Shown: positions 34,650-56,061, counted from the first letter of the stretch. The stretch: 61,853 bases of DNA from Bacillota bacterium (GCA_014360055.1 JACIYH010000004.1:1-61853), one strand, 5' to 3'. Made by a program: numbers and translations. Notes: generated by a model from the sequence alone, not told the origin.

Positions 34650-36413
34650 GTGAGGGTCAGCGTCGGGCGACCGGGTGCCGAGGGCGGTCATGAAGCGAAA
34701 GGGATTGGGGTGGTAGAAATCGGGGCCGATTTGATTCTGGTGGGGGGCAGGGTGTGGGAAGGCGGGGCTGCGGCGGGGGGGTACCGCATTGCGGAAGGCG
34801 GGGCTGCGGCGGGGGGGTACCGCATTGCGGAAGGCGTGGCGGTGGCGGGCGAGCGCATCCTGGCGGTGGGCGGCCGGGATCAGGTGATGTCGTACCGCGG
34901 ACGGGGTACCGAGGTGGTGGACCTCAAGGGGCGTACCGTCCTGCCCGGTCTCATCGATTCTCACTGTCACATCGTGGGGTTGGGGCTGGCCCGGACGGGC
35001 ATAGACCTCAACTACCCCCGGGCCAGGTCCATTGCCGACGTCTGCCGCCTGGTGGCCGAGCGGGCGGCCGCGCAGCCGCCCGGGACCTGGATCCGGGGAC
35101 GGGGGTACGATCACCTGCGCCTGGAGGAGCGGCGCCACCCCACCCGGTGGGACCTGGACCCGGTATCGGGCGACCACCCCGTGGTGCTGGTGCGTAGCTG
35201 CGGGCACATCTCTGTGGCCAACAGCGAGGCCCTGCGCCGGGCGGGGATCACGCGGGAGACCCCCGATCCTCCGGGAGGCGCCATCGAGCGCCGGGACGGC
35301 GAACCCACCGGCGTGCTGAAGGAGGCGGCGCAAGGCCTCGTGCACGGGGTGGCGCCCCACACCAGGGCCGAACTGGAGGAGGCCCTGCGGCAGGCAGCCC
35401 GTGAGTACCTTTCCCTGGGCGTCACCGCCGTTCACGACATGAGCGGCGGCGATCCGGAGGGCCCCGCTGTCATTCAGGACCTGGCCCGCGGGGGCGGGCT
35501 GGGCATACGCATCTCGTTTTCCCTCATTTCGGCGCCTCCCTCGGGGGGCAGGCCCGCGGCGGGGGATGCGGCCCTGAGCACGGGTTTGCACACGGGACTG
35601 GGTGATCACTGGGTGAAGCTTGGTCCCGCCAAGGTGGTGCTGGACGGCTCCGACGACGGTGCCACCGCCCTCATGTACCGACCCTACCGGGACGGCAGTG
35701 GCACCGGGATCGGGTACTGGCAGGACGAGGAGTTGCTGGCCTGGGCCCGCGAGGCGGCCCGGTGGGGCTGGCAGCTTTCCCTCCACGCCATCGGTGACCG
35801 GGCCATCGACCAGGCCCTGCACGCCATCGCCGAGGCCCGGCGCGGTGGGCGCGGGGAAGGGTGGTGGCGGCCGCGCATTGAGCACTTCATTTACCCGAGC
35901 CCGGAGGCGGTGGCGACCGCTGCCGCCTTGGGCGTGGTGCCCGTGGTCAACCCCATCTTCCTCTCTATGGTGGACCGGGGCTACCTGGAACTCATCGACG
36001 AGGAAACCCTCGCCCGGGGGTTTCCCATCAGGTCCCTGCTCGATGCCGGCCTCACGGTGGCGGCCGGCTCGGACGCTCCCGTGGCCGACGCCAACCCGCT
36101 GGCGGGGATGGCCTGTGCCGTGGACCGGTCCACCGCCGCGGGAGACCCCTTCCGCCCGGGGGAAGCGGTCTCGCTGGCCGAGGCGCTGGACATGTACACC
36201 CGGGCGGGGGCGGTAGCCGCAGGCTGGGGTGACGACCTGGGGGTGATCGCTCCGGGCAGGCTGGCCGACCTGGTGGTGCTGGACGGCGGCCTGGCGGTGC
36301 CCAAGTATGGCCGCCTGACCGCAACAGATGGCGGCCCCGTGCTGGCACGCTTGTTGCGCGAGATGCGGGTGACCATGACCGTGGTGGGTGGCCAGGTACG
36401 TTTCCACGTTTGA
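34650..36413 (+). CDS. amidohydrolase-family (YtcJ/amidohydrolase-3-like) metal hydrolase
   Basis: N-terminus ..LILVGGRVW.., the metal motif LPGLIDSHCHIVGLG, and C-terminal ..AAGSDAPVADANP.. . It contains an in-frame 36-nt duplication (34758-34850: GAAAGGYRIAEG, twice). Confidence 0.75.
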   Translation: MRVSVGRPGAEGGHEAKGIGVVEIGADLILVGGRVWEGGAAAGGYRIAEGGAAAGGYRIAEGVAVAGERILAVGGRDQVMSYRGRGTEVVDLKGRTVLPGLIDSHCHIVGLGLARTGIDLNYPRARSIADVCRLVAERAAAQPPGTWIRGRGYDHLRLEERRHPTRWDLDPVSGDHPVVLVRSCGHISVANSEALRRAGITRETPDPPGGAIERRDGEPTGVLKEAAQGLVHGVAPHTRAELEEALRQAAREYLSLGVTAVHDMSGGDPEGPAVIQDLARGGGLGIRISFSLISAPPSGGRPAAGDAALSTGLHTGLGDHWVKLGPAKVVLDGSDDGATALMYRPYRDGSGTGIGYWQDEELLAWAREAARWGWQLSLHAIGDRAIDQALHAIAEARRGGRGEGWWRPRIEHFIYPSPEAVATAAALGVVPVVNPIFLSMVDRGYLELIDEETLARGFPIRSLLDAGLTVAAGSDAPVADANPLAGMACAVDRSTAAGDPFRPGEAVSLAEALDMYTRAGAVAAGWGDDLGVIAPGRLADLVVLDGGLAVPKYGRLTATDGGPVLARLLREMRVTMTVVGGQVRFHV

Positions 36414-36540
36414 GGCGAACCCGTTGACCGATGCAACACCCTGGGCGGACACGGGCGCCGGGCAGGAGCCGTCTGCTGAAGGTGCAACGGGGGGAAGCTG
36501 CAGCCGCGTCTCAATTGTGGCATCCGTATCTCATCTATGA

Positions 36541-36561
36541 AACACCCGCGAGTGGGGTGTT
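36541..36561. promoter_or_regulatory. inverted repeat AACACCC-N7-GGGTGTT, a possible activator (UAS) site
   Basis: Perfect 7-bp arms read from the sequence. Its centre lies about 80 nt upstream of the sigma-54 -24 element. Function is inferred. Confidence 0.3.
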
Positions 36562-36626
36562 CGAGAGGCACCGGACCAATGGGCCGTTTTTCGCGGGTTT
36601 CGGCGAGCCAGAGCGCCGGACAATCC

Positions 36627-36642
36627 TGGCATGGATCTTGCA
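36627..36642 (+). promoter_or_regulatory. sigma-54 (-24/-12) promoter
   Basis: cCTGGCATGgatcTTGCAc against the consensus YTGGCACGrNNNTTGCW. GG and GC have the canonical spacing. It lies about 50 nt upstream of RBS AAGGGAGG plus GTG 36691. Confidence 0.65.
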
Positions 36643-36690
36643 CTGGTAACTGGTTGGAACCAGGCGAAACGCAAGAAGGGAGGCCAGAGC

Positions 36691-38286
36691 GTGGAGTTAG
36701 GAGCTTACCCGTATGCGAACTGGGTCCTGGCGGTGCTGGCGGTCTATCTCGCGGGCATGGTCTTCATCGGCTGGTGGGCGTCGAGGCGGATCAAGGACGT
36801 GGCGGACTACGTGGTGGCTGGTCGGCGCATGGGACTCCTGTGGATCAGCGGGTCGTTGTTTGCGACGTGGTTTTGCGCGGGCACGTTGATGGGGGCCACG
36901 GCCAACGCTTACCTGTTCGGGAACCAGGGCGTCATCTTCGACCCCTGGGGGGCGGCGTTGTGCCTGGCCCTGGCGGGGTTCTTCTTCGTGCGCATCATGA
37001 GGCGCGGTCGTTTCATCACCCTGGTGGATTTCTTCGAGATGCGCTACGGCCGGGGCATGGGGCTGGCCAGCACCATCGTCCTCATCATCGCCGAGATCGG
37101 CTGGGTGGGTGCCCAGCTGGTCGCCTTCGGGACCATCATCCAGATCTTCAGTGGCCTGCCCCTGTGGGTGGGGATCGTCATTTCCACCGTGGTGCTGGTG
37201 GCTTACACATACCTGGGAGGCATGTGGGCCGACACGCTCACCGACATCATCCAGATGGCCATCCTGGCCGTCGGTGTGATCGTGATGCTGCCGGCCGCCA
37301 TCTCCCACGTGGGCGGCTGGAGTTCGTTCTTCGCCAACGCCGGCAACTGGGCGGAGCTGCCCCCCTTCGCCATGGGTCCGGCGGGCGAGTCCGGATACCT
37401 GGGCTATACCGGCCTGCTGGGCTGGATCTACTACCTGGCGGCCTGGATGTCCATCGGACTGGGCAGCATCCCGGCCCAGGACTTCATGCAGCGGGCCCTT
37501 TCCTCCAAAGATGAGAAGGTCGCCGTATACTCTTCCTACATTGCCGCGGTGGGGTACATCGTGATCGGGCTCATCCCGGTGGCCCTGGGCATGGCCATGT
37601 TCATCATCAACCCCGACCTCACCGTGCCCGAGACCGAGATGATCCTGCCCTGGATGGCCATGAACTTCCTGCACCCGATCCTGGCCAGCGTCTTCGTGGC
37701 GGCGGCGGTGGCGGCCCTCATGTCCAGCGGCGACAGCGCCCTCCTGGCTATCGGCTCCCTGGCGGGGTACAACGGCCTGCGCTACTTCAAGCCCAACCCC
37801 TCGGAAAGGGAGAGCCTGTGGGTGACGCGCATCATCGTCCCCATCGCCGCGGTGGCCTCGCTGCTCCTGGCCCTCTATGCGGAGACCATCTACCGGCTCA
37901 TGGTGATCGCGTGGACGGTGATCCTGGTGGGGCTGTTCGCCCCCTATGCAGCGGCTTACTTCTGGAAAAAGGCCAACTCGACGGGGGCGATGGCGGCCCT
38001 CCTGGGGGGCTTTGCTTCGTGGGTGGGTCTGATCTTCTACTACCTGCCCACCACCATGGAGATGAACGTGGGGGTGATCGAAGAGGGCGTCGTCTACATG
38101 GACTGGGCCATCTGGGATGCCGTGTACCTGGCCTCCGTCCCCGGCTTCGTCGTGTCCGTGGTGTTGCTGGTGTTCGTCTCACTCCTGACACAGCGGCGTG
38201 ATCCGCCGCGGCCGCTCACCGACATCGACGGCAACCCGCTTCCCGTGAAGGACTGGCTGGGCATTTTCCGGCGCCAGGCGGCCTAG
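36691..38286 (+). CDS. sodium:solute symporter (SSF) family transporter
   Basis: Multi-TM protein with an SSF-type N-terminus (..DYVVAGRRMG..). I moved the start to GTG 36691 because the tracked ATG 36631 lies inside the sigma-54 promoter. Confidence 0.75.
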   Translation: MELGAYPYANWVLAVLAVYLAGMVFIGWWASRRIKDVADYVVAGRRMGLLWISGSLFATWFCAGTLMGATANAYLFGNQGVIFDPWGAALCLALAGFFFVRIMRRGRFITLVDFFEMRYGRGMGLASTIVLIIAEIGWVGAQLVAFGTIIQIFSGLPLWVGIVISTVVLVAYTYLGGMWADTLTDIIQMAILAVGVIVMLPAAISHVGGWSSFFANAGNWAELPPFAMGPAGESGYLGYTGLLGWIYYLAAWMSIGLGSIPAQDFMQRALSSKDEKVAVYSSYIAAVGYIVIGLIPVALGMAMFIINPDLTVPETEMILPWMAMNFLHPILASVFVAAAVAALMSSGDSALLAIGSLAGYNGLRYFKPNPSERESLWVTRIIVPIAAVASLLLALYAETIYRLMVIAWTVILVGLFAPYAAAYFWKKANSTGAMAALLGGFASWVGLIFYYLPTTMEMNVGVIEEGVVYMDWAIWDAVYLASVPGFVVSVVLLVFVSLLTQRRDPPRPLTDIDGNPLPVKDWLGIFRRQAA

Positions 38287-38388
38287 GGTGGTCCCGGCGC
38301 GCACTGCGTCGCGGCGGGCGAACCCTGAGTGGCCCGAGAGCGAGGCGGAAGGTCAGAGAGGGGCGCAGACCAGTGTGAGGAGGGATGT

Positions 38389-39744
38389 ATGGTGCCCCGC
38401 GCGAGCTACGAGCAGGTGATCGCGGAGTCGCAGAAGATCCTGGACATGATCGCCAAGAAGGAACTCACCCCCGAGGAGCGGGCGTGGGTGGTGGAGGAGA
38501 CCGTCCGGGGGTTCCGCGACCACGTCAATCCCGGGTTCCTGGAGTACCGCAAGTCGGTGTCCACCGACTACACCGCGGTGGAGTGGGACGACCGGGGAGT
38601 GACGTTCAAGGACGTCCACGGCAAGGTGTTCATCGACTGCCTGGGAGGGTACGGCATCTACAACTGCGGCCACCGTCACCCCAAGGTGATGGCGGCGGTG
38701 ATCAATCAGCTCGAACGCCAGGCCCTGCACAGCCAGGAGTTGCTCGACCCCCTGCGGGCCATGCTGGCCAAGCTGGTGGCCGACATCACGCCCGGCGACC
38801 TCCAGTACTCCTTCTTCACCAACAGCGGCACCGAGAGCATAGAGGGGGCCATGAAACTGGCCCGGCTGCACACCGGCCGTAAGGCCTACGTGGCCGCGGT
38901 GAACGCCTTCCACGGCAAGAGCATGGGGTCGCTGTCGCTCACCTCCAAGTCGGTGTTCCGCAAGCCCTACCTGCCCCTGCTCGCCCCCGTCCACCACGTG
39001 CCCTTCGGGGACGCCGACGCCCTGGAGAAGGTGCTGTCCAGTTGCGCCTTCGTGGGTGAGGACGTGGCGGCGGTGGTGCTGGAGCCGGTGCAGGGTGAGG
39101 GCGGCGTACACGTGGCGCCCGACGGATACCTGCCCCGCGTGCGGGAACTGTGCGACAGGTACGGTGCCCTCCTCGTGCTGGACGAGGTGCAGACGGGCAT
39201 GGGCCGCACCGGCAAGATGTTCGCCTGCGAGCACTGGGACGTGGTGCCCGACATCCTCTGCCTGGGCAAGGCCTTCGGGGGCGGTGTGATGCCCATCGGC
39301 GCCTTCGTCTCCACGGCGGAGATATGGGAGGAGATGACGCCCAACCCCTTCCTGCACACCACCACTTTCGGCGGCAACCCCATCGCCTGTGCGGCGGCCA
39401 TCGCGGCCATCAACGTGATCCTGGAGGAGAAGCTCTACGAGAAGGCTGCCGTGGTGGGGGACTACTTCCTGCGCGGGCTGCGTGTGCTGGCCGACCGCTA
39501 CCCGCAGGTCTGCCAGGAGGCGCGCGGGCTGGGCCTCATGCTGGGCGTGGAGTACCGGACCAACGAACTGGGTTACGAGGTGGCCAAGGGGCTGTTCGAG
39601 AACGGCGTGCTGGTGGCGGGGACCCTCATCAACGCCAAGACCATCCGCTTCGAGCCGCCCCTCACCATCGAGAAGGAAGAGGTGGACACCGTACTCAACA
39701 TCCTGGAGTCGGTGTACCAGAAAGTCGCGCGCAGTATGGGGTGA
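38389..39744 (+). CDS. class-III aminotransferase, putrescine aminotransferase (YgjG/PatA)-like
   Basis: ..GFLEYRKSV...DCLGGYGIYNCGHRHPKV...FFTNSGTESIEGAMKLAR...LDEVQTGMGRTGKMF...KAFGGG. RBS GAGGAGGGA precedes ATG 38389. Confidence 0.75.
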   Translation: MVPRASYEQVIAESQKILDMIAKKELTPEERAWVVEETVRGFRDHVNPGFLEYRKSVSTDYTAVEWDDRGVTFKDVHGKVFIDCLGGYGIYNCGHRHPKVMAAVINQLERQALHSQELLDPLRAMLAKLVADITPGDLQYSFFTNSGTESIEGAMKLARLHTGRKAYVAAVNAFHGKSMGSLSLTSKSVFRKPYLPLLAPVHHVPFGDADALEKVLSSCAFVGEDVAAVVLEPVQGEGGVHVAPDGYLPRVRELCDRYGALLVLDEVQTGMGRTGKMFACEHWDVVPDILCLGKAFGGGVMPIGAFVSTAEIWEEMTPNPFLHTTTFGGNPIACAAAIAAINVILEEKLYEKAAVVGDYFLRGLRVLADRYPQVCQEARGLGLMLGVEYRTNELGYEVAKGLFENGVLVAGTLINAKTIRFEPPLTIEKEEVDTVLNILESVYQKVARSMG

Positions 39745-40181
39745 TGGCTGTGAAACCGGTTGCCATCCTGTCCATCGACGGGTCCAGGTGCACAGGTTGC
39801 CAGATGTGCATGCTGGCGTGTGCGGCGGCCCGGGAGGGGGTATTCAACCCCTTCCGGGCCACCCTGCGGGTGGAAAAGCCGTACACCTACGCCGGACCCG
39901 AGGTGAGGTTCTCCGCCTGCGACGGGTGTCTCACCTGCCAGGAGGTGTGCCCCACGGAGGCCATCGGTGTGCGCGACGGGCACCTCTACCTGGACCTGGA
40001 CCTCTGCACCGAGTGCGGCCTGTGTGCCGGGAGTTGCCCGCACGGGGTGATCCGCACCGACCCCATGCGGCTGTGTGACGGCTGTGCCGGGCGGGAGGGC
40101 GGCCCGGCCTGTGTGGCCTGGTGCCCGGTGGAAGCCCTCTCCCTGGGGCAGGCGGTGGAGGAGGTGAGCCCCCGTGGCTAG
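39744..40181 (+). CDS. 4Fe-4S ferredoxin-domain protein
   Basis: CTGCQMCMLAC, CDGCLTCQEVCP and CTECGLCAGSCP clusters. Its ATG overlaps the aminotransferase stop (TGATG). Confidence 0.75.
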   Translation: MAVKPVAILSIDGSRCTGCQMCMLACAAAREGVFNPFRATLRVEKPYTYAGPEVRFSACDGCLTCQEVCPTEAIGVRDGHLYLDLDLCTECGLCAGSCPHGVIRTDPMRLCDGCAGREGGPACVAWCPVEALSLGQAVEEVSPRG

Positions 40182-40216
40182 TCGGGTGTCCGGGGGGGCC
40201 GAGGAGGTGGGTGGCT

Positions 40217-42139
40217 GTGGCTAGCCGAGGTTACCGCGGCCGCCCGGAGGGCGGCGACACGTATGCCGGCAAGGTGCTGCGGGTGGATCTGGGTGGCATG
40301 TCCAGCTGGACGGAGCCCCTCAACCGGGATTGGGCCCGCCTCTTCTTCGGGGGTAAGGGCCTGGGGTTCCGCTACTTCCACGATGCCGTACCGGCGGGGA
40401 CGGACCCCCTCTCCCCGGGCAACGCCCTCATCTTCGTGACGGGGCCGCTCACGGGGACCCTGGCCCCCTGCACGGGGAAGCTGGGGGTGGTGACCAGGTC
40501 GCCTGCCACCGGGACCATCCTGGACTGCTCGGTGGGGGGTACGGTGGGGCCCCAGTTGAAGTACGCCGGATACGACCTGGTGGTGATCACGGGGCGGGCG
40601 CCCCATCCGGTGGTGCTGGTGATTGACGACGACCGGGTCTCCTTCCGGGAGGCGAACGGGGTATGGGGGAGGGGGTGTCACGAGACCGAGTTCCTGCTGC
40701 GGGATGCCCTGGGGGCTGAGTTCCGCATCATCTCCACGGGACCCGCGGGGGAGAACCTGGTCCCCATGGCCTGCCTGACTTCGGAACTGTACCGCCAGGC
40801 GGGCCGGGGGGGCGTGGGGGCGGTGATGGGGTCCAAGCACCTCAAGGCGGTGGCGGTGCGGGGCACCGGCTCCCTGGCTGCTCCCGACATGGGCCGCTTC
40901 CTGGAGTTCGCCCACCGCGCCATGCGGGAGGACCTGCTCACCGACACCAACCTGTGGGCCTACACCGACGGTACCCCCATGATCGTGGGGCTTTCGCAGT
41001 CGGCGGGCATCCTGCCCACCCGCAACTTCCAGAGCGGCACCTTCGCCGGGGCCGAGGCCATCGGGGCCGAGGCGGTGCGCTCCCTGCGGGTGGCCAAGAA
41101 GTCCTGCTTCGGCTGCGGCCTGGGCTGCGGCAACTTCCTGCGCGCCCCCGCGGTCGGTGCCGCCGGCGCAGGCGCCGGCGCGTGGCCCGCGGGTGGGTCA
41201 CGCGGCGAGGCGGGCGCAGCGCCGGGCCGTGGCGGCGAGGCCGGTGCGGGGCCGCGGTGGCCGGGCGAGGGGGCGGTGGAGGGTCCCGAGTACGAGACCC
41301 TGGCCCTCACCGGCTCCAACTGCGGCATCGGGGACCTGGGGGCCATCATCGAGTTCAACCGCCTCTGCGACGACCTGGGGCTGGACACCATCTCCACCGG
41401 TGGCGTGGTGGCCTTCGCCATGGAACTGGCCGAGCGCGACCTGGCCGACCTGGGGTTGCGCTTCGGGGACGTGGATTCCTACCTGCGGGCGCCCGTGCTC
41501 ATCGCCCGGGGTGAGGGCGTGGGCCGCCAGTTGGGCCGGGGGGTGCGCTACCTGGCCGAGCGTTACGGGGGCAAAGAGTTCGCCATGGAAGTGAAGGGCC
41601 TGGAATTCCCCGGGTACGAGCCGCGGGGCTCCTGGGGGATGGGGCTCGCCTACGCCACCTCGGACCGGGGGGCGTGCCACATGCGGGCCTGGCCGGTGGC
41701 GGACGAGGCCTTCGGGAGCCTGGACCCCTTCACGGGAGAGGGCAAGGCGCAGCTGGTCATCAACGGGCAGCACCAGAACTCCATCAAGTTCTCCCTCATC
41801 TTCTGCGATTTCTGGGCCCTGAGCCCCGAGCTCATGGCCGGGTTCTGCTCGGTGGCGCTGGGCCGGGAGGTCACCGCCGACGAGTTGCGGCTGGCCGGGG
41901 AGCGCATCTGGAACCTGGGGCGGCTGCTCAACGTGCGGGAGGGGTTCCGCCGCGAGCACGACTACCTGCCCGCGCGGGTACTGGAGCACCCCCTGCCAGA
42001 CGGGCCGGCGGCCGGCAGGGTGGTGCCGCCGGAGGTATTCCGGGCCATGTTGGAGGAGTACTACCGCCTGCGGGGCTGGGATGAGGACGGCGTGCCCACC
42101 CCGGCCAAGTTGGCCGAACTGGGACTGGAGGGGCTGTGA
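40217..42139 (+). CDS. aldehyde:ferredoxin oxidoreductase (tungsten AOR family)
   Basis: YAGKVLRVDLGG...FGGKGLG...GPLTG...G...VTRSPATG, then ..EYETL.., ..DxGLD.. and ..CHMRAWP.. . It has a Gly/Ala/Arg-rich insert at about 41141-41280. I chose GTG 40217, behind GAGGAGG. Confidence 0.8.
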   Translation: MASRGYRGRPEGGDTYAGKVLRVDLGGMSSWTEPLNRDWARLFFGGKGLGFRYFHDAVPAGTDPLSPGNALIFVTGPLTGTLAPCTGKLGVVTRSPATGTILDCSVGGTVGPQLKYAGYDLVVITGRAPHPVVLVIDDDRVSFREANGVWGRGCHETEFLLRDALGAEFRIISTGPAGENLVPMACLTSELYRQAGRGGVGAVMGSKHLKAVAVRGTGSLAAPDMGRFLEFAHRAMREDLLTDTNLWAYTDGTPMIVGLSQSAGILPTRNFQSGTFAGAEAIGAEAVRSLRVAKKSCFGCGLGCGNFLRAPAVGAAGAGAGAWPAGGSRGEAGAAPGRGGEAGAGPRWPGEGAVEGPEYETLALTGSNCGIGDLGAIIEFNRLCDDLGLDTISTGGVVAFAMELAERDLADLGLRFGDVDSYLRAPVLIARGEGVGRQLGRGVRYLAERYGGKEFAMEVKGLEFPGYEPRGSWGMGLAYATSDRGACHMRAWPVADEAFGSLDPFTGEGKAQLVINGQHQNSIKFSLIFCDFWALSPELMAGFCSVALGREVTADELRLAGERIWNLGRLLNVREGFRREHDYLPARVLEHPLPDGPAAGRVVPPEVFRAMLEEYYRLRGWDEDGVPTPAKLAELGLEGL

Positions 42140-42141
42140 CC

Positions 42142-43476: not shown

Positions 43477-43554
43477 CAGGAGGGCAATTTGGGATGGTGG
43501 TGCCCGACCCGCCAGGGCCGGGTGCGGACAGCCCGGGGAGAGGAGGAGATGCGC

Positions 43555-44415: not shown

Positions 44416-44686
44416 CACGTAGGGGTTCCCTGGGTCCGCCCCCAATTCTGGTGGCCCGTTTTTGGGGGAGACAACGAAGGCTCCCGGACAGGTTGGACGA
44501 AAAAACGCAGCAATGATAAGGGATCGGGAAAGGCTGTCGGAATTGATGGGCCCCGAAAACCACCCTGGGCAAGGGGGCAGGGTGAGCCCAGAAGGGGGGT
44601 GACAACCCCGCAGGCTACGTGAGCGCTTATGCCACCGCGAGCCGTGTGTCAGCCGTCTGCTGGGATGAACTGAAAGGGGTGGTCAT

Positions 44687-46184: not shown

Positions 46185-46316
46185 GCCCTGCGGTTGGGTT
46201 GGCCACCCCAAAGGGTACTCTGCCTTTTGGGTTGAGCTACAAAGGGCGGCCGCGAGGGCGTATGGAATCGAGAAGGCGGCGCCATACCACACCAAGATGC
46301 GAGGAGGTTCAGGCCG

Positions 46317-47239: not shown

Positions 47240-47262
47240 AGGGGCACCGGGCGGGTGCCCCT
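47240..47262 (+). terminator. GC-rich hairpin after the second GME gene
   Basis: aggggcacc-gggcg-ggtgcccct followed by ctgtgtt. Confidence 0.4.
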
Positions 47263-47409
47263 CTGTGTTAGCTGTCGGACTGTGAGGCCGACCCATAGCA
47301 GCGCTGGAATGTTGTTGTTATACCACAAAGGGCGGCGGCGCCGCCGGGCCGAATGGGCTGGTGGAATGAGCAGAGCCCTCGCGGTTTGCGAGGGGACGGG
47401 CAAGGGAGG

Positions 47410-48462: not shown

Positions 48463-48531
48463 CCAGTGCCTGTTCCTTGCCCGGGGGCGTTATGCCCCCG
48501 GACAAGGTCAGTGGTGGGAGCGGACAGGAGG

Positions 48532-49482: not shown

Positions 49483-50407
49483 CACGGGCGGGTCGTCGGA
49501 AGACGGTATCCTGGGGAGAAGTGGCAGGAGAGCGGTATTGAGCCTGGGCCGCGAGGTGGTCGGCCTCCAGGACGGGGAGGCGCCAGGTGGCGGAGCGAAT
49601 CTGCGCCTCCTGGGTCAGCAAGTGGTGGACATGCTGAAGGCTGGCTACCAGGTGGTGGTAACGCACGATATACGCGGGGACGGTGGAATGGCGGATCGGC
49701 TGCGGGGGAGGTCAGCCCGGGATGGTGGAGCGGCTTTCGGGATGTGGCTGGCCGGGGTTCAGGGGATAGCCGGTTACCGGCTCCAACAGGCCATTCACAA
49801 CCAGATGGCCCTGGCAAAGCTGACGCGCCCGGTGGTGACCGTGGTTACGCTGCTGGCGGTCAGGACGGTGGAGGACAGCGGGCGGGCCAGGCCCAGAATC
49901 ACTGCGGAGCCCCTGAGGGTGGTGAACAGCCGGATGATGCGGCTTCTCGCCGAGGGTGGGGTGGTAGTGGTGGCCGCCGGAGGTGGCGGGGTTCCCGTGG
50001 TACCGCGTGCCGACGGCACGCTGCAGAACGTGGCCGAGATGGTAGACCATGACCTGGTGGCGGAATGTCTGGCCTCGTCAGTGGGGGCGAATCTGCTGGT
50101 GATCCTGACCAACACGCCCGGAGTCAGGCCGGGACATGGAGCCCCGAAGGACGGGTTCATCCGGCGGATGAGCGTGCAGGAGGCCGTGTGTTACCTGGAA
50201 GAGGGGGCATTCTCTGCCAGGGGGTCCCGCCAGAAGGTCTTGTCGTGCATCCGGTTTATCGAGGGCGGGGGGGAGGCAGCGGTCATCACTCAGTGGAGTC
50301 GGTTAAGCGAGACCCTCGCCGGTCGGGCGGGGACGTGGATCGTACCGGAAGGATGCGCAAAGCGGGCAATCGTGAACCAGGAGCTTGGGGGTGCGTGTGA
50401 TGAGTAA
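49475..50407 (+). CDS. carbamate-kinase-like paralogue with degenerate active-site motifs
   Basis: Collinear with carbamate kinase (..VVVVAAGGGGVPVV.., ..LVILTNTPGV.., ..GSRQKVLSCIRFIEGGGEAAVI..). However, ALGGNA is replaced by SLGREV, and THGNGPQVG by THDIRGDGG. GTG 49475 lies just before the upstream stop. Confidence 0.6.
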   Translation: MIDTGGSSEDGILGRSGRRAVLSLGREVVGLQDGEAPGGGANLRLLGQQVVDMLKAGYQVVVTHDIRGDGGMADRLRGRSARDGGAAFGMWLAGVQGIAGYRLQQAIHNQMALAKLTRPVVTVVTLLAVRTVEDSGRARPRITAEPLRVVNSRMMRLLAEGGVVVVAAGGGGVPVVPRADGTLQNVAEMVDHDLVAECLASSVGANLLVILTNTPGVRPGHGAPKDGFIRRMSVQEAVCYLEEGAFSARGSRQKVLSCIRFIEGGGEAAVITQWSRLSETLAGRAGTWIVPEGCAKRAIVNQELGGACDE

Positions 50408-51674
50408 TGCTGCCGAGTTGAAGGAAAAGTACCTGTATCCCAATGTCCGTACCTACTACCGGGAGCCACTTGTGCTTTCCGAGGGCAATGGCTGCCGCGT
50501 CCGCGATAGGGAGGGGAGGTCATTTCTCGACCTTTTCGGAGGGATCCTCACCGTAAGCGTGGGGCACGCCCATCCCCGGGTCGTGGGTGCTGTTACGGAA
50601 CAGGTGCGCAAGATCTCGCATACGTCTACTTGCTACCTCAACGAACCCATGCTACGGCTTGCTGAGCGGCTGGCCGAGATCACCCCGGGCAGGTTGCAGA
50701 AGAGCTTCTTCACAAACAGCGGTACGGAGGCGATCGAGACGGCCATTGCGACCGCGCGCGCCTACACCGGCAGGCTTGAGGTAATCGCCCTTCGTCACAG
50801 CTACCATGGCCGTTCCAGCCTGGCCACCACGTTGACGGGTAACGCCGCCTGGCGCACCAGCAACCCCGCGGGCGGGATCGTACATGCCCACAGTCCCTAT
50901 TGCTACCGTTGTTCTTTTGGGCTCAGCTATCCGGGGTGCGGGGTGGCCTGTGCCCACGACATCGAGGAGTTGATAAAGACCGAGACGACCGGCACGGTCG
51001 CGGCCCTGATAGCGGAGCCCATTCAGGGTGTGGGCGGTTTCGTCACTCCGCCGCCTGAGTATTTCCGCGTCGCGGTCGATATTGTGCGCCGGCACGGGGG
51101 CATCTTCATCTGCGATGAGGTGCAGACCGGTTTTGGCCGTACCGGCGATTATCTCTTCGGGATTCAACACTGGGGCGTGGAACCGGATGTGATGGTCTTT
51201 GCGAAGGGTCTGGCAAACGGGGCTCCCATAGGCGCCACCATTGCCATTCCCGAGGTCGCCGACGCGGTCACGGCCAACAGCATATCCACTTTCGGAGGCA
51301 ATCCGGTCAGCATGGCGGCGGGTGTTGCCACGCTGGAAGTGATCATCGAAGAGAAGATCCCCGAGCACGTGGGTCGCGTGGGCAGAGTGATGATGGAGGG
51401 CCTGCGCCGACTGCAGGACCGCCACAGCTTCATCGGCGATGTCCGGGGTAAAGGTCTCATGATCGGCGTGGAACTGGTAGGGGAAAACAAGGCTCCGGCT
51501 CCCGACCTCACCACCTGCTTTATGGAGCTTGCGCGCGAAGAAGGTGTGCTGGTGGGCCGGGGCGGGCTGTACGGCAACGTGTTGCGCATAGCGCCTCCCA
51601 TGACGATTTCGGAGGAAGAGGCAGGCGAGGCGCTGGAGAAGCTGGGCCGGGTTTGCGCCCGGGTCCTGCGGTAG
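50400..51674 (+). CDS. class-III aminotransferase (omega-amino acid/beta-alanine:pyruvate or AGXT2-like)
   Basis: ..FLDLFGGILTVSVGHAHP.., FFTNSGTEAIETAI, ..CDEVQTGFGRTGDYLFG.., ..FAKGLANGAPIG.. . Its ATG overlaps the upstream gene by 8 nt. Confidence 0.7.
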   Translation: MSNAAELKEKYLYPNVRTYYREPLVLSEGNGCRVRDREGRSFLDLFGGILTVSVGHAHPRVVGAVTEQVRKISHTSTCYLNEPMLRLAERLAEITPGRLQKSFFTNSGTEAIETAIATARAYTGRLEVIALRHSYHGRSSLATTLTGNAAWRTSNPAGGIVHAHSPYCYRCSFGLSYPGCGVACAHDIEELIKTETTGTVAALIAEPIQGVGGFVTPPPEYFRVAVDIVRRHGGIFICDEVQTGFGRTGDYLFGIQHWGVEPDVMVFAKGLANGAPIGATIAIPEVADAVTANSISTFGGNPVSMAAGVATLEVIIEEKIPEHVGRVGRVMMEGLRRLQDRHSFIGDVRGKGLMIGVELVGENKAPAPDLTTCFMELAREEGVLVGRGGLYGNVLRIAPPMTISEEEAGEALEKLGRVCARVLR

Positions 51675-51693
51675 GGAGTTTGGGGGGAGCATC

Positions 51694-53181
51694 ATGGCGG
51701 GTCAAGTGGAAAGGCTGCGCAATTACGTAGGCGGCAAGTGGGTTGAATCCGAGAGTACCGCATGGGAAGAAATAAGGAATCCGGCAACGGATGAGGTTCT
51801 CAGCCTGGTTCCTATGAGCACAAAAGCGGAAGTGGACGCCTGCGTCTCTGCGGCCGCGGAAGCGTTCCCCGCCTGGCGGAACACACCTGCCGTCGTCAGG
51901 TGCCGGCACCTGTTCCAGCTCAAGCAACTCCTGGAGGAGAAGCAAGCCGAGCTGGCTCGCGTAATCACGCTGGAGCACGGGAAGGAGTACCGCGCTGCAC
52001 TCGGGGAAATGCGGCGTCTGATCGAGATGGTCGAGGTAGCGAGCGGTATCCCGACCCTGATGATGGGCGACTACTCCGAGCAGATTGCCCCCCGCATTGA
52101 CGAGTACAGTATCCGCGTACCTCTGGGCGTGTTCGCCATGATCCCGCCCTTCAACTTCCCCGGCATGGTGCCGTTCTGGTTCATGCCCTGGGCCGTGGCA
52201 CTGGGTAACACCTATATTATCAAGCCGAACGAGCAGTGCCCCATGACCCAACAGCGGCTGTTCGAGTTGATCGACCAGGTGGGCTTTCCGCCCGGGGTGG
52301 TGAACCTGATCAACGGCGGGCGCGACGTCGCCACCTGGCTGATCCAGCATCCGGACATCAGGGGTGTATCGTTCGTAGGTTCCACCCAGACGGCGCGCAC
52401 CGTCTACCGCATGTGTGCCGAATACGGCAAGAGGTGCCAGGCTCAGGGTGGGGCCAACAACTTCCTGGTGGTAATGCCCGACGTTGACCTGGACGCCATT
52501 ATGCCCAACATCATGGAGTCGTGCTTTGGAAACTCGGGCCAGAGGTGCCTGGCGGGAGGCGTAGTGCTCGGCGTCGGGGCGGTTTACGAGCCGCTGAAGG
52601 AGAAGTTCCTGGAGGCTTGCCGGAAGCTCAAGGTGGGGTGCGGGTTGGATGAGGATACCGACCTGGCGCCCGTAGTCTCGCGCCCGGCGCTCGAGAAGCT
52701 GCACGGGGCGATCGAGCGCGGGATCAGGGAGGGAGCCAGGCTTCTCCTGGACGGCCGCGGAGTCAAGGTCGCAGGGTATCCCAATGGATACTTCCTGGGT
52801 CCCACCGTGTTCGAAGCTGAGCCGGGGATGCACGTCTTCGACGAAGAGGTTTTCGGACCGGTGCGGTGTCTGAAAAGGGTGGAGACGCTTGACGAAGCTA
52901 TCAGCCTGATCAATGCCAGCCGTTACGGGAACGCGGCCACCATCTACACCCAAAATGGTGCCCATGCCCGTGAGTTCCGCTACCGGGTGGAATGCGGCAA
53001 TGTGGGCATCAACGTGGGCATCGCCGCGCCCATGGCGTTCTACCCGTTTGCAGGCAGGAAGGACTCCTTCTTCGGTGACCTGCACGGGCAGGGCAAGGAC
53101 GTGGTGGATTTCTTCACCGACCGCAAAGTTGTCATCGAGCGGTGGTTGCCGGAGAGGGAAGTAAGGGAAAGGTGGTTCTGA
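51694..53181 (+). CDS. mmsA: CoA-acylating methylmalonate/malonate-semialdehyde dehydrogenase (MmsA type)
   Basis: LRNYVGGKWVES..., ..PFNFPGMVPFWFMPWAVALGNTYIIKPNEQ.., catalytic GQRCLA, and the C-terminus ..FFGDLHGQGKDVVDFFT.. . Confidence 0.75.
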   Translation: MAGQVERLRNYVGGKWVESESTAWEEIRNPATDEVLSLVPMSTKAEVDACVSAAAEAFPAWRNTPAVVRCRHLFQLKQLLEEKQAELARVITLEHGKEYRAALGEMRRLIEMVEVASGIPTLMMGDYSEQIAPRIDEYSIRVPLGVFAMIPPFNFPGMVPFWFMPWAVALGNTYIIKPNEQCPMTQQRLFELIDQVGFPPGVVNLINGGRDVATWLIQHPDIRGVSFVGSTQTARTVYRMCAEYGKRCQAQGGANNFLVVMPDVDLDAIMPNIMESCFGNSGQRCLAGGVVLGVGAVYEPLKEKFLEACRKLKVGCGLDEDTDLAPVVSRPALEKLHGAIERGIREGARLLLDGRGVKVAGYPNGYFLGPTVFEAEPGMHVFDEEVFGPVRCLKRVETLDEAISLINASRYGNAATIYTQNGAHAREFRYRVECGNVGINVGIAAPMAFYPFAGRKDSFFGDLHGQGKDVVDFFTDRKVVIERWLPEREVRERWF

Positions 53182-53182
53182 G

Positions 53183-54304
53183 TTGACGGTCACTGTCGGT
53201 GTACCCCGGGAGATCAAAAGGGACGAAAACCGAGTTGCCATCACGCCGGCTGGGGTGGAGGCCTTTGTGCGGGCCGGGCACCGGGTGCTGGTGGAGACCG
53301 GTGCGGGGCTCGGTAGCGGGATAACTGACGATGACTACCGGGCGGCGGGAGCCACGATCTTGCCGCATGCATCCCAGGTGTTCGCCGAGGCTGACATGAT
53401 TCTCAAGGTTAAAGAGCCCCAGCCCTCTGAGTACGGGTTGTTGCGGGCCGGGCAGGTGCTTTTCACGTACCTGCACCTGGCGGCGGAACCAGAGCTGACC
53501 AGGGGGTTGATGGAGCGCCGGGTGGTGGCCGTAGCTTACGAGACGGTACAACTGCCGGACGGCTCGTTGCCGCTTCTGGCGCCCATGAGCGAGGTCGCGG
53601 GCCGGATGGCGGTTCAGATCGGTGCCCGGCTCCTGGAGAAGAGGTGCGGAGGCAGCGGGGTTCTGCTGGGGGGAGTCCCCGGCGTTCCACCTGCCGAGGT
53701 GGTGATCATCGGAGGCGGCACCGTGGGGATAAATGCCGCCAAGATCGCCCTGGGGATGGGTGCCAGGGTCACCGTACTGGACATCAACACGGCCCGGCTG
53801 CGCTATCTGGACGACGTGTTCGGCGGCCGGGTGGTCACCGAAGTATCGTATAGTTATAATATTGCTAAGGCTGTGGCCAGGGCTGACCTCCTGATCAGCG
53901 GAGTGTTGGTGCCCGGTGCCAGGGCGCCGCGGCTGGTCACGGAGGAGATGGTCAGGTCGATGAAGCCGGGCTCGGTGATCGTTGACGTGGCTATCGATCA
54001 GGGAGGGAGCGTCGAGACGATCGACCGGGTGACCACGCACTCAGATCCGTACTTCGTGAAGTATGGCGTGCTGCATTCGAGCGTGCCCAACATTCCGGGC
54101 GCGGTGCCTCGCACATCCACCTTCGCCCTGACCAATGTGACCATGCCCTACGCCCTGAAGCTGGCCAACCAGGGCTGGCGGGCGGCGGTGCAGTGCGATC
54201 CCGCTCTTGCCCGGGGTGTGAATGTGGCGGAGGGCTGCGTGACGAATCAACGGGTTGCCGAGGCCCACGGGCTCGAGTACACCCCGCTCGAGAGGGTGTT
54301 GTAG
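53183..54304 (+). CDS. ald: alanine dehydrogenase
   Basis: [20 protein letters not shown]..., the NAD fold [14 protein letters not shown], and ..VDVAIDQGG.. . TTG start 2 nt after the mmsA stop. Confidence 0.85.
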
Positions 54305-54318
54305 TGTAGCAGAACTGG

Positions 54319-54343
54319 GCGGGGGCGGGCCAACCGCCCCCGC
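54319..54343 (+). terminator. 10-bp perfect GC hairpin after ald
   Basis: gcgggggcgg-gccaa-ccgcccccgc, 15 nt after the stop. No clear U-tract. Confidence 0.45.
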
Positions 54344-54396
54344 TGCCTATCGGTGTGTTGGCGGCTGCAGGTTGCACCGGGAGTGGTGGTAGAGGC

Positions 54397-56061
54397 GTGT
54401 ACCTTACCGTACGGGAGGCACTGCAGATAGGACCCCTCAGGGAGGCGTCGGTGATCGCCGGGGCCCGCGGCCTGGACCGACAAATCAGGTCCGTCACGGT
54501 CATGGATACACCGGAGATCGAGTTGTGGGTCCGGGGCGGCGAGTTGCTCCTCACCAACGCTTACGTGGTCAAGGACGAGCAGGCACGCCTTATTTCCACG
54601 CTCGAACGCGTTCACGCCCGGGGCGTGGCGGCGGTGGGCATCAAGGTAAGGGATTTCCTGGAGAACGTCGTGCCCCAGCTGATCCGCGTTTGCGAGCGGC
54701 TTGACCTGCCTCTCTTGCAGGTACCCGTCCGTTATCCCTGGGTGGAGATCATCAACAGCCTCCTGGGGGAAATCATCAACCGCCAGGTGCGGGTGCTGGA
54801 GTACGCCCTGGAAGTGCACGAGCGACTGAGCAATGCCGTTCTGGAAGGCGGGGGACTCCAGCAGGTGGCAGAGCAGATCGCCGAACTCACGTCATCTCCG
54901 GTATCCATCCTCGATGCCAACTGGGAACCGCTCGTCAGCGTGAGGGGAGAGCCCCCCGCCCCCGAGGTGCTGGATGGACTGCGCAGGGAGATGGCGGGAA
55001 AATCAGGTCCCTCCGGGGAAGGAGCGGGGCAGCGCGGGGTCAGACAGCGGCTGGCGGTTATTGAGGTGCCCGGTCGGCCCGGCAACGCCGTGGCCGTGGT
55101 GAGGATGGCCGCGGGGCGCGAAGTGTACGGCTACGTGGTAGTTTCCGGGTTGACCCGACCCCTGGGTGATTTTGAGGCGGTCGGGGTGGAGCAGGGCGCG
55201 ATCGCTGCTGCCTTCGAGATCTTGCGGGATCGAACCGCCCGGGCGGTGGAGCGGCGCTTCCGCGACACCTTCCTGTTCGACCTGCTGTCAGGTAACATCG
55301 GCGACCGCGACCTCGCCGCAGCCAGGGCCAGGGCGCTGGGGTGGAACCTGGCGGGGCCGTACGTGGTGGCCGTGATATCTCTGGACGACCCGGGCGTCTG
55401 GCCGCGCCGGGACGGCCTGGAAGCGGGCCGGCTGGTGAGACAGGCAGTGGTGTCCGCGCTCGGGCTGCAGGCCGGGGTGGTATGGCTTGAGCGCACGGAC
55501 GGCGTAGTCGTGTGTGTCCCCATGCGGGCAAACAGCAACAATCGCATTCTGCGGCTGCTGGGCGAGAAGCTGAAAAGGGCCGCCGACCAATCGCACCCTG
55601 GATGCAGTGTGACCCTGGCGTTGGGCCGGGTGCACGAAGACATCATGGGGCTGGCAGTGAGCTACCGGGAAGCAAAGCAGGCCCTCGATCTGGGGCGTCG
55701 CCTCTGGGGCGGCAACCGGGTGATCCTGTACGACGAACTGGGTTTCTACCGTATCTTGAGCCAGTACCCGTTGGACTCCGAGGAGATGCGCCAGTTCTGT
55801 CAGGATACGCTCGGGCCTGTGGTCGAATATGATCGGCGAACCAGGTCGGACCTGCTCAAGACGCTGGAAGTATACCTGGACTGTATGGGCAGCTGGAACA
55901 GGGCGGCCGAGGTCTTGTGCGTCCACCCGAACACACTGGGGTACCGCCTGAACAGGATTCAGGAGTTGCTGGGGGTCGACCTGAACTCGCCCGAGCAGCG
56001 GTTACACCTGCAACTGGCATTAAAGATCCTGCGCATTGGTGACGGGGCCGGGTTATCCTAA
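54397..56061 (+). CDS. PucR-family transcriptional regulator
   Basis: N-terminal purine-catabolism-regulator-like domain (LTVREALQI..VIAGARGLDR.IRSVTVMD). C-terminal PucR HTH (NRAAEVLCVHPNTLGYRLNRIQELLGVDL). Confidence 0.8.
   Translation: MYLTVREALQIGPLREASVIAGARGLDRQIRSVTVMDTPEIELWVRGGELLLTNAYVVKDEQARLISTLERVHARGVAAVGIKVRDFLENVVPQLIRVCERLDLPLLQVPVRYPWVEIINSLLGEIINRQVRVLEYALEVHERLSNAVLEGGGLQQVAEQIAELTSSPVSILDANWEPLVSVRGEPPAPEVLDGLRREMAGKSGPSGEGAGQRGVRQRLAVIEVPGRPGNAVAVVRMAAGREVYGYVVVSGLTRPLGDFEAVGVEQGAIAAAFEILRDRTARAVERRFRDTFLFDLLSGNIGDRDLAAARARALGWNLAGPYVVAVISLDDPGVWPRRDGLEAGRLVRQAVVSALGLQAGVVWLERTDGVVVCVPMRANSNNRILRLLGEKLKRAADQSHPGCSVTLALGRVHEDIMGLAVSYREAKQALDLGRRLWGGNRVILYDELGFYRILSQYPLDSEEMRQFCQDTLGPVVEYDRRTRSDLLKTLEVYLDCMGSWNRAAEVLCVHPNTLGYRLNRIQELLGVDLNSPEQRLHLQLALKILRIGDGAGLS

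Follow-up and report, generated by a model that had tools for sequence, protein, structure and literature searches.

Two adjacent, probable amine and guanidino catabolic modules in a Bacillota genome, with a possible arginine-deiminase-like logic built from different enzymes

A stretch of 61,853 nucleotides from an uncultured, high-GC Bacillota bacterium (GCA_014360055.1 JACIYH010000004.1:1-61853), here called the window, carries at positions 34650-56061 a run of catabolic genes that includes two short DDAH-like proteins (DDAH1 and DDAH2), a divergent carbamoyltransferase (CTase-X), a carbamate kinase (CK) and three aminotransferases. The reads SRR11866716 include this locus. Genes were assigned by listing open reading frames (ORFs) and then searching Pfam and NCBIfam profiles against curated cutoffs. 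All 17 features listed in an earlier note on this DNA were located by ORF, Pfam, NCBIfam and motif searches, in the order given there and all on the plus strand, and four of the products (a putrescine aminotransferase, GabT, CK and an alanine dehydrogenase) pass a curated NCBIfam equivalog cutoff. We consider it somewhat probable that two neighbouring modules, both serving to break down amines and guanidino compounds, make up the region, and that together they follow the logic of the arginine deiminase (ADI) and agmatine deiminase pathways with different enzymes.

Module 1 (36.6-44.4 kb) consists of an SSF-family symporter (SSF1, 36691-38286; PF00474, 147 bits, no NCBIfam equivalog), a putrescine-type class-III aminotransferase (38389-39744, alternative start 38329; 708 bits against a cutoff of 612 for NF008570, and 608 bits, under the cutoff of 659, for TIGR03372), a poly-4Fe-4S ferredoxin with several CxxCxxCxxxCP motifs in its translation (39744-40181), an aldehyde:ferredoxin oxidoreductase (AOR, 40211-42139, alternative start 40121; AFOR_N 248 bits, AFOR_C 406 bits), the 4-aminobutyrate (GABA) aminotransferase GabT (42136-43476; TIGR00700, 558 bits against a cutoff of 507) and DDAH1 (43549-44415, alternative start 43489; Pfam DDAH_eukar and ADI). 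Between 36691 and 44415 these genes are separated by gaps of 0-102 nt or overlap by 1-4 nt: the start of the ferredoxin gene overlaps the stop codon of the putrescine aminotransferase gene, and AOR and GabT overlap by 4 nt. The intergenic sigma-54 -24/-12 element TGGCATGGATCTTGCA (36627-36642, plus strand), an exact TGGCAT-N5-TTGCA, is the sole exact match to TGGCAY-N5-TTGCW in the 61.8-kb window and lies 49 nt upstream of a GTG at 36691 that is preceded by a ribosome-binding site. Because the ATG at 36631, the mechanical ORF start of SSF1, falls inside this element, the GTG is probably the true start. The window also encodes, outside the cluster, a sigma-54 enhancer-binding protein of GAF-PAS-AAA+-HTH_8 architecture (26758-28587, minus strand; Pfam Sigma54_activat 238 bits, with GAF, PAS and HTH_8), a candidate activator of the predicted promoter 8 kb downstream. 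The sigma-54 promoter proposed in the earlier note is thus borne out at the sequence level, by consensus and spacing upstream of a gene and by an enhancer-binding protein in the window, and, the tight spacing being considered as well, module 1 looks like one sigma-54 operon.

A second SSF-family symporter (SSF2, 44687-46132; PF00474, 186 bits) lies between the modules. Module 2 (46.3-56.1 kb) begins with DDAH2 (46317-47162; Pfam ADI and DDAH_eukar) and continues with CTase-X (47419-48462, alternative start 47353), which reaches the cutoff of no NCBIfam transcarbamylase model; CK (48514-49482, alternative start 48466; TIGR00746, 430 bits against a cutoff of 358), whose gene call in an identical contig (L088) is 322 aa; a degenerate CK paralogue (CK2, 49469-50407, alternative start 49427; 127-132 bits with NCBIfam CK models, far under their cutoffs); a class-III aminotransferase, AT3 (50385-51674; PF00202, 340 bits); the MmsA-type dehydrogenase MMSDH (51694-53181; subfamily model TIGR01722, 536 bits against a cutoff of 448), here called MmsA; an alanine dehydrogenase (AlaDH, 53183-54304; TIGR00518, 553 bits against a cutoff of 392); and a PucR-family regulator (54355-56061; PucR, GGDEF_2 and HTH_30 domains). 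The genes from CTase-X to PucR form a second packed run.

Several transcription units, under two or more regulatory systems, make up the region described earlier as a "supercluster" of about 20 kb, and it is not a single operon: the sigma-54 operon is followed by separately spaced genes, with gaps of 272 nt before SSF2, 185 nt before DDAH2 and 257 nt before CTase-X, and there is a shift in GC content at about 44 kb (0.61-0.65 between 44 and 54 kb, against 0.66-0.72 on either side). The segment from SSF2 to AlaDH may have been acquired horizontally. Two 12-mers occur as two exact copies each in the window, all of them intergenic: ACAAAGGGCGGC stands upstream of DDAH2 (46239-46250) and, with its orientation unchanged, upstream of CTase-X (47325-47336), and may be an operator that these two genes share, and the pair of AGCCGTCTGCTG, at 36467-36478 upstream of SSF1 and 44651-44662 upstream of SSF2, are possible operator sites. 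Rfam searches returned no family, including no guanidine riboswitch, for the whole window at the gathering threshold or for 34-56.7 kb at E<=1, and scans for sigma-70 promoters and terminators gave nothing above shuffled controls.

CTase-X (347 aa) keeps the carbamoyl-phosphate motifs SLRTR, HPCQ and HCLP, which are invariant across its family. The OTC motif DxxxSMG is absent: the aligned 240's stretch, YPKCWPSLEYLPP, has neither the Asp nor SMG. Its best NCBIfam match, the AOTCase model, gives 282.2 bits against a cutoff of 288, with lower scores for the OTC models TIGR00658 (245.9 against 280.85 bits) and NF001986 (256.5 against 306), the putrescine carbamoyltransferase model TIGR04384 (218 against 500), two YgeW models (184 against 453 and 174 against 500) and the ATCase models (120 bits or less). 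Second-substrate specificity in transcarbamylases is governed by the 80's, 120's, proline-rich and 240's loops (Shi 2015, PMC4581275), and an extended 120's loop with a proline-rich loop marks the "knotted" transcarbamylases AOTCase, SOTCase and YTCase. Across these four loops CTase-X aligns without large gaps to the AOTCase of X. campestris, and both a 120's loop, GDPVGWYYGRGNEYLR, and a proline-rich loop, YSPSMKKPVSVPHS, are present and colinear with those of AOTCase. At the positions of the AOTCase specificity residues Glu92, Asn185 and Lys302 (X. campestris numbering; Shi 2015, PMC4581275) it has T, K and E. In a neighbour-joining tree with 200 bootstraps, CTase-X groups with E. coli YgeW, AOTCase and a second, unclassified transcarbamylase introduced below (82.5% support), and the P. 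furiosus OTC, E. coli ArgI and PyrB fall outside this clade. Foldseek with the AlphaFold model of CTase-X ranks AOTCase best (TM 0.74-0.75), with OTCs at 0.62-0.68 and YgeW (3q98) at 0.67/0.62 and rank 47. CTase-X is thus an uncharacterised AOTCase/YgeW-like transcarbamylase, knotted-type by its sequence loops, and not an OTC or ATC; the expectation that it would not group with the anabolic enzymes holds by tree, loops and Foldseek alike. We also considered the ureidoglycine carbamoyltransferase of Rubrobacter (UGTCase; Barba 2013) and rejected it, since that enzyme has the set STRT/HPTQ/HPLA and sits on the ATCase branch, as against SLRT/HPCQ/HCLP in CTase-X.

Relatives of CTase-X were sought in a scan of one genome per species, and the neighbourhoods of the best 80, all from metagenome-assembled genomes (MAGs), were taken and labelled from L001 onward. 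Relatives turned up in at least 581 species genomes. The best 80 come from archaea (Thorarchaeota and others) and from bacteria of the Eisenbacteria, Caldisericota, Atribacterota, Bipolaricaulota, Chloroflexota, Actinomycetota/Thermoleophilia and Thermodesulfobacteriota. Loop sequences divide the family into two subgroups: subgroup II (66 of the 80 loci) has AYSTER in the 80's loop, SPSV[HE]KPL in the proline-rich loop and YPKAWT[SC]K in the 240's loop, and subgroup I (12 loci), to which CTase-X of the window belongs, has AF[VIA]TER, SPSxKKPVSVPHS and YPK[CSA]WPS; K189, P260 and F96 are residues of subgroup I. The core of subgroup I, including the window, has 99% bootstrap support, and its hosts are Bacillota, Thermoleophilia/Actinomycetota and Thermodesulfobacteriota. 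The two differ in their neighbours within 6 kb: a second CTase, about 40% identical, occurs in 39/66 subgroup II loci and 2/12 of subgroup I, CK in 30/66 and 6/12, and AT3 in 0/66 and 5/12. When all 20 subgroup I loci examined are counted, AT3 is found in 8, CK in 9 and a type-A orthologue of DDAH2 (see below) in 6. Subgroup I genes are accompanied by PucR or GntR regulators, APC or ABC transporters, CK, AT3, MmsA and type A; those of subgroup II by SsnA, xanthine dehydrogenase, adenine deaminase, an allantoinase/hydantoinase-like hydrolase, M20 peptidase and PLP enzymes. In many loci of the latter, Thorarchaeota (Asgard) MAGs among them, the CTase-X gene is followed by the second transcarbamylase, which is itself under all NCBIfam cutoffs, and by CK (L003, L007, L020-L031, L036, L059, L070, L076 and L081, at about 10001-14000 each). 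By analogy, these clusters resemble the reductive urate (2,8-dioxopurine) pathway, in a variant in which two ureido groups would be cleaved phosphorolytically. In the subgroup I locus of one Thermodesulfobacteriota MAG (L016:10229-13876), genes for AllH, AllG and an FdrA/AllF-like protein (oxamate carbamoyltransferase) lie directly downstream of the CTase-X and ABC-transporter genes, so that two different carbamoyl-phosphate-yielding systems stand side by side.

DDAH1 and DDAH2 are 44% identical and belong to two separate orthogroups, which we call type B and type A, respectively. DDAH2 has 281 aa, and a 288-aa form of DDAH1 is on record (P0241). Both are remote from solved structures, the best match being the N-terminal domain of ArgZ (E ~1e-11, 22-23% identity). 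Both match the Pfam domains DDAH_eukar and ADI only, not the AguA domain PAD_porph (PF04371), and their scores are far under the equivalog cutoffs: DDAH1 reaches 83 bits against 300 and DDAH2 72 against 340 with the DDAH models (NF045658/59/60), the two have 66 and 52 bits against 450 with the ArgZ/AgrE model (NF052232), and the scores with the ADI equivalogs fall far short as well. An AlphaFold model of DDAH2 (pLDDT 95.4) superposes on ArgZ with TM 0.84-0.87 and on DDAH with 0.78-0.88, the fold matches also including ADI, NnhA and amidinotransferases. Across the family R79-D80, E127-G-G-D130 and L178-D179 are invariant, and H177 and P270-H271-C272 nearly so (H177 and H271-C272 in at least 90%); in the guanidino-group-modifying superfamily these positions hold the Asp that binds guanidinium, the pair of an acidic residue and a His, and the nucleophilic Cys. 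With an alpha/beta-propeller fold model and these Cys, His and acidic residues, DDAH2 has the marks of the hydrolase branch of that superfamily, and both proteins look like active deiminases. By the title of PDB entry 6juz, an N71S mutant of ArgZ traps a covalent intermediate. At the position of Asn71 the DDAH-like family has an invariant Asp, as in ADI and DDAH, which gives modest support to single-step deimination to a ureido product rather than a dihydrolase reaction. In both proteins the arginines of the GNRS and RxG[DE]E motifs are also retained; they align with arginines of ArgZ, and in ADI, DDAH and ArgZ this pair binds the carboxylate of the substrate, the alpha-carboxylate in ADI and DDAH. 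A carboxylate-bearing substrate is therefore favoured; among the candidates proposed earlier this disfavours agmatine.

The gene neighbourhoods tie each DDAH-like orthogroup to a carbamoyltransferase of its own. Type-A orthologues of DDAH2 (66-75% identical) directly adjoin CTase-X in six of seven distinct places (L006, L083/84, L085, L090, L091 and the window), usually accompanied by CK and PucR, and about ten further pairs of type A and CTase-X matches, apparently from common genomes, are suggestive of the same link. Type-B orthologues, 69-72% identical to DDAH1 in L090 and L091, are paired in four relatives (L090, L091, L094 and L096) with a different enzyme, CT312, an OTC-family transcarbamylase of 312-315 aa that adjoins either type B or, in L089, GabT (L090:3580-4518; L091:8603-9541; L089:3955-4902; L094:8958-9896; L096:9009-9956). 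The three copies of CT312 scored (L089, L090 and L091) pass the NCBIfam OTC cutoff with 372-402 bits. All five, however, have NTW[HT]SMG in place of DxxxSMG and GD[ILV][WF]N in place of GDGNN, and the Asp of DxxxSMG is the residue that holds the alpha-amino group of ornithine (Shi 2015, PMC4581275); CT312 is probably a neofunctionalised OTC for a substrate without an alpha-amino group. Two DDAH-like paralogues feeding one carbamoyltransferase, as had been supposed, is accordingly not the ancestral design, and in L090 a single operon holds both deiminase/CTase pairs and one CK. In relatives, SSF2 accompanies type B rather than type A (an SSF gene, 52% identical, then CT312 and type B in L091; type B and SSF in L095), and GabT adjoins type B in the window and CT312 in L089.

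Two further gene families were seen in these neighbourhoods. L089:1-843 encodes a third, longer DDAH-like type (361 aa, 29-36% identical to types A and B) whose neighbours are genes for an M20 peptidase and a PucR protein; CT312-GabT, AOR, MmsA and CTase-X-AT3 are found elsewhere on that contig. A protein of the polysaccharide deacetylase family (CE4, PF01522) is encoded beside DDAH-like/transcarbamylase modules in four loci (L085:8013-8876, L086:9115-9987, L089:18795-19625 and L096:5840-6730), accompanied by SDR genes in L085-87; PuuE-type allantoinases are members of this family.

The remaining enzymes of module 2 recur to different degrees in the related loci. AT3 orthologues (43-67% identity) adjoin subgroup I CTase-X in L001, L012, L013, L016, L043, L056, L085 and L089, and AT3 is predicted to consume the amine freed by CTase-X. 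MmsA has QGGANN in place of the ELGGK general-base motif together with GQRCLA, the signature of a CoA-acylating semialdehyde dehydrogenase (no general-base Glu268, Arg-Cys pair kept), and by these motifs it is to be regarded as a CoA-acylating malonate/methylmalonate-semialdehyde dehydrogenase. An MMSDH (544 bits) lies beside CTase-X-AT3 in L089, an MmsA-like dehydrogenase 41% identical to that of the window in L001, and a weaker MmsA-like tblastn match (50% identity) nearby in L009. PucR of the window shares 55% identity with its counterpart after CTase-X-AT3 in L089, and PucR genes flank DDAH-like/CTase modules in L012, L083-86, L089, L091 and L094; it is the probable regulator of module 2. 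CK2 is degenerate, as had been said of it: it is 38% identical to CK, the N-terminal GGNA motif is missing, a stretch of 31 residues is deleted and DKD has become DHD. In the related loci every region that matched CK2 matched CK at least as well. CK2 seems to have arisen by a duplication confined to its lineage and to have lost its catalytic motifs; it may serve as a regulatory or structural partner of CK. Conserved in the neighbourhoods of module 2 are type A, CTase-X, CK and AT3, joined by PucR, by MmsA-type dehydrogenases in several loci and, in the window, by AlaDH; neither CK2 nor the amidohydrolase at the upstream end of the region recurs.

That amidohydrolase, a YtcJ-like Amidohydro_3 metallohydrolase (34650-36413, plus strand; PF07969, 317 bits), has as its only PDB relatives the uncharacterised hydrolases 3icj and 3igh. 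It was never seen beside the module in more than 90 related loci; we therefore do not count it as a part, and the membership ascribed to it earlier is doubtful. A role as a UacY-like decarbamoylase was also considered, as UacY too belongs to PF07969, and found no support: the protein is YtcJ-like, has no D-aminoacylase match in the PDB and is not conserved with the module.

Taken together, these neighbourhoods back the logic of a deiminase-type enzyme followed by a phosphorolytic carbamoyltransferase and CK, with the amine passing to an omega-aminotransferase and MmsA, that the earlier note had put forward. In module 2, DDAH2, the predicted deiminase supplying CTase-X, would use its Cys, His and Asp residues to cleave one C-N bond of an omega-guanidino acid, giving a ureido acid and ammonia; CTase-X, predicted to be a phosphorolytic ureido-acid carbamoyltransferase, would split the ureido group into carbamoyl phosphate and an omega-amino acid; and CK would convert carbamoyl phosphate and ADP to ATP, CO2 and NH3. 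The amine would then be turned to an aldehyde by AT3 and the aldehyde to an acyl-CoA by MmsA, with AlaDH regenerating pyruvate and PucR acting as regulator. A CoA-acylating MmsA suggests a C3 amine product, beta-alanine or 3-aminoisobutyrate, and for this reason we propose the 3-guanidinopropionate series, in which 3-guanidinopropionate would give 3-ureidopropionate and NH3, then beta-alanine and carbamoyl phosphate, then malonate semialdehyde and finally acetyl-CoA. A "beta-ureido acid" pocket shared by both subgroups, with subgroup-specific differences, would fit this by analogy, the intermediates of the subgroup II pathway being 3-ureidopropionate derivatives. Module 1 would convert putrescine and GABA to succinate by way of two aminotransferases and the ferredoxin-linked AOR, AOR and ferredoxin oxidising succinate semialdehyde and, for putrescine, 4-aminobutanal. 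GabT beside type B or CT312, together with the loss of the ornithine-binding Asp from CT312, suggests a 4-guanidinobutyrate route, in which DDAH1 would convert 4-guanidinobutyrate (or a close analogue) to 4-ureidobutyrate on the way to GABA; in the window the ureido product of DDAH1 would have to go to CTase-X or to an enzyme encoded elsewhere in the genome. The identities of the genes, the two orthogroups, the recurrent adjacency and the families of the enzymes are what the sequences show; the deiminase (not dihydrolase) chemistry, the phosphorolytic direction and every substrate in this scheme are what we infer from them. Our more specific proposal is tentative: it is possible, if rather doubtful, that this is an undescribed guanidino-acid deiminase pathway, with paralogous deiminases acting on 3-guanidinopropionate and 4-guanidinobutyrate, CTase-X as a catabolic beta-alanine transcarbamylase, ATP made by substrate-level phosphorylation, and a two-ATP urate variant in the sister subgroup.

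Such a system would resemble several known ones in part. The ADI (ArcA-ArcB-ArcC-ArcD) and agmatine deiminase (AguA-PTCase-CK-AguD) pathways have the same three-step logic, of a guanidino hydrolase, a phosphorolytic transcarbamylase and an ATP-making CK, and three of the related loci share a permease-CTase-deiminase-CK operon layout with the former: PucR, AA_permease, CTase-X, type A and CK in L083 and L091, and a complete arc-like set of CK, PucR, AA_permease, CT312 and type B in L094. The parts differ, however. The deiminase is a DDAH/ArgZ-like protein of 281-288 aa, not an ADI of about 410 aa or an AguA (PF04371); the transcarbamylase is AOTCase/YgeW-like, without OTC or PTC motifs; and in the window uptake would be by two SSF symporters in place of the APC permeases that fill the transporter slot of L083, L085, L090, L091 and L094, the amine being oxidised and not exchanged by an APC substrate/product antiporter. 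AOTCase and SOTCase are the nearest to CTase-X, in best NCBIfam and structural match, the SLRT/HPCQ/HCLP set and four colinear specificity loops, yet E92/N185/K302 of AOTCase are replaced, an arginine-biosynthesis context is lacking, and the link of CTase-X to CK implies, unlike in AOTCase, a catabolic role. Judged by its sequences the cluster is functionally of ADI/agmatine deiminase design, yet it fails the tests for ADI, AguA, DDAH, ArgZ, OTC, PTC, AOTCase and YgeW.

In the reductive urate pathway, YgeW and YqeA make ATP by phosphorolysis of 2,3-diureidopropionate (bioRxiv 10.1101/2025.04.24.650524; PMC12507026), a precedent for a knotted-type transcarbamylase and a CK making ATP from a ureido acid. 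As there, a predicted catabolic transcarbamylase of the knotted-type group would be coupled to CK in our cluster; subgroup II of CTase-X clusters with SsnA, xanthine dehydrogenase, adenine deaminase and a hydantoinase-like gene, and the E. coli operon likewise neighbours a sigma-54 regulator. CTase-X differs from YgeW in length (347 against 396 aa) and in score (174-184 bits against cutoffs of 453-500), the window lacks urate-pathway genes, and its ureido substrate would come from a deiminase, not from ring opening. The paralogous Pseudomonas enzymes GbuA (guanidinobutyrase) and GpuA (guanidinopropionase) bring C4 and C3 omega-guanidino acids into GABA and beta-alanine catabolism, but as ureohydrolases they set urea free without conserving energy, whereas the proposed deiminase route would keep the carbamoyl group as ATP. 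BauA and BauC are a beta-alanine:pyruvate aminotransferase and a malonate-semialdehyde dehydrogenase; module 2 similarly has a class-III aminotransferase beside an MmsA-type dehydrogenase, with an AlaDH that would recycle pyruvate, but AT3 is not an orthologue of a characterised beta-alanine aminotransferase. In the literature we found no described guanidinobutyrate, guanidinopropionate or other guanidino-acid deiminase, beta-alanine or GABA transcarbamylase, ureidobutyrate-metabolism enzyme, or this cluster.

Several observations weigh against the two-module, deiminase-fed scheme. A type-A orthologue occurs in L086/L087 without CTase-X beside it. A tblastn search of the window for a CT312 copy gave CTase-X alone, at 35% identity, so the fate of the DDAH1 product is left unexplained. 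AT3 matches no equivalog, its nearest solved relatives being racemases and GabT, and the AlphaFold model of CTase-X is of moderate quality (pLDDT 71.5), with a poorly predicted N-domain. AlaDH followed by a PucR-family gene resembles the ald/adeR pair of B. subtilis (with a weak AdeR match), and AlaDH may be an independent unit of this kind, though PucR genes also flank modules in loci that have no AlaDH. The kept arginine pair is equally compatible with L-arginine as the substrate. Substrate assignments rest on neighbouring genes, and the enzyme chemistry would follow from family membership and gene context. Finally, the closest relatives of the window's CTase-X, L001 and L089 (100% bootstrap), have no type-A gene beside CTase-X, which implies that CTase-X can serve an imported ureido compound without a deiminase.

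This last point opens onto an alternative that we regard as unlikely, namely that module 2 mainly serves ureido acids that are imported or come from pyrimidines (3-ureidopropionate or 3-ureidoisobutyrate, giving beta-alanine or 3-aminoisobutyrate and carbamoyl phosphate), that the DDAH-like genes are accessory or unrelated, and that the 20-kb cluster is a chance juxtaposition of putrescine/GABA and ureido-acid operons. L001 and L089 combine CTase-X-AT3 and an MmsA-like dehydrogenase with ABC transporters, M20 and CN_hydrolase, and L012, L016 and L043 have CTase-X, AT3, CK and an ABC transporter with no DDAH-like gene; the two modules of the window, moreover, differ in promoters or regulators on either side of the GC shift at 44 kb. 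A catabolic beta-alanine transcarbamylase was also named as a possibility yet to be found (Shi 2015, PMC4581275). Such an arrangement would not, however, account for the adjacency of type A and CTase-X in six independent loci, or for the position of DDAH2 257 nt upstream of CTase-X with ACAAAGGGCGGC common to both upstream regions. No dihydropyrimidine dehydrogenase or dihydropyrimidinase was found in the scanned parts of the window, and the juxtaposition is not unique to the window, as L089 too co-localises AOR, GabT, MmsA, CTase-X and AT3.

Somewhat less probable still is an arginine or methylarginine deiminase pathway assembled from non-orthologous parts, in which the DDAH-like proteins, as short arginine deiminases or true DDAHs, would form citrulline, CTase-X (and CT312 in relatives) would be a catabolic citrulline phosphorylase, CK would make ATP, and AT3 would be an ornithine aminotransferase. 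The four-part arcDABC layout of the L094 and L083/L091 operons is what such a pathway would look like, L-arginine or methylarginines are the substrates of all the nearest relatives of the DDAH-like proteins with solved structures, the arginines that bind the carboxylate are retained and CT312 is over the NCBIfam OTC cutoff. Against these stand the transcarbamylases themselves, CTase-X being without DxxxSMG and having AOTCase-type loops for a different second substrate and five of five CT312 proteins having Asn for the Asp that binds the ornithine alpha-amino group; the dehydrogenase is of the CoA-acylating MmsA type and not a pyrroline-5-carboxylate or glutamate-semialdehyde dehydrogenase, the two deiminase/CTase pairs of the L090 operon would be redundant if both acted on arginine, and the DDAH and ADI equivalog scores are far under cutoffs. 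That the DDAH-like proteins are instead ArgZ/AstB-type dihydrolases or amidinotransferases that do not feed CTase-X, with CTase-X and CK acting on an unrelated ureido compound, is very improbable, for although ArgZ, an arginine dihydrolase, is their best match in sequence and structure and amidinotransferases are among the fold matches, the identity to ArgZ is 22-23%, NF052232 scores are 52-66 bits against a cutoff of 450, ArgZ Asn71 is replaced by an invariant Asp, and it would be left unexplained why each DDAH-like orthogroup so strictly adjoins a carbamoyltransferase of its own.

Other genes of the window lie outside these modules. On the minus strand, an OYE/Pyr_redox_2 flavoenzyme gene (2,4-dienoyl-CoA-reductase-like, 28679-30685) adjoins that of the enhancer-binding protein, with an MFS transporter gene (30791-32050) in the same stretch, and the minus-strand genes of 26758-32050 may be a separate sigma-54 regulon. 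A HerA-like DUF87 ATPase is encoded at 1401-3536 (minus strand), overlapping radical-SAM (plus) and NUDIX (minus) ORFs occur at 13724-15736, and gatA (56651-58183) and gatB (58180-59712) follow the cluster directly, and there may be a gatC at about 56.3-56.65 kb.

Carbamoyl-phosphate-linked substrate-level phosphorylation is among the few routes to ATP from nitrogen-rich compounds in strict fermenters; the known cases so far are arginine, agmatine, oxalurate derived from allantoin and, recently, urate. The two modules described here tie two sizeable uncharacterised enzyme families, by strong gene context, to ATP-yielding nitrogen catabolism, and make the catabolic beta-alanine transcarbamylase foreseen by Shi 2015 a testable prediction. 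If our proposal of a guanidino-acid deiminase pathway is true, omega-guanidino and ureido acids would join the substrates of carbamoyl-phosphate-linked ATP formation, and the sister subgroup, with its second transcarbamylase and CK, would represent a two-ATP reductive urate pathway in Thorarchaeota, Caldisericota, Atribacterota, Eisenbacteria and Bipolaricaulota. MAG reconstructions that score these genes as arginine biosynthesis or as the arginine deiminase pathway would then need revision, and a function would be given both to roughly a thousand proteins of the "DDAH / arginine deiminase family" and to a clade of transcarbamylases that, in hundreds of genomes of uncultured bacteria and archaea, now bear the annotation OTC or AOTCase.

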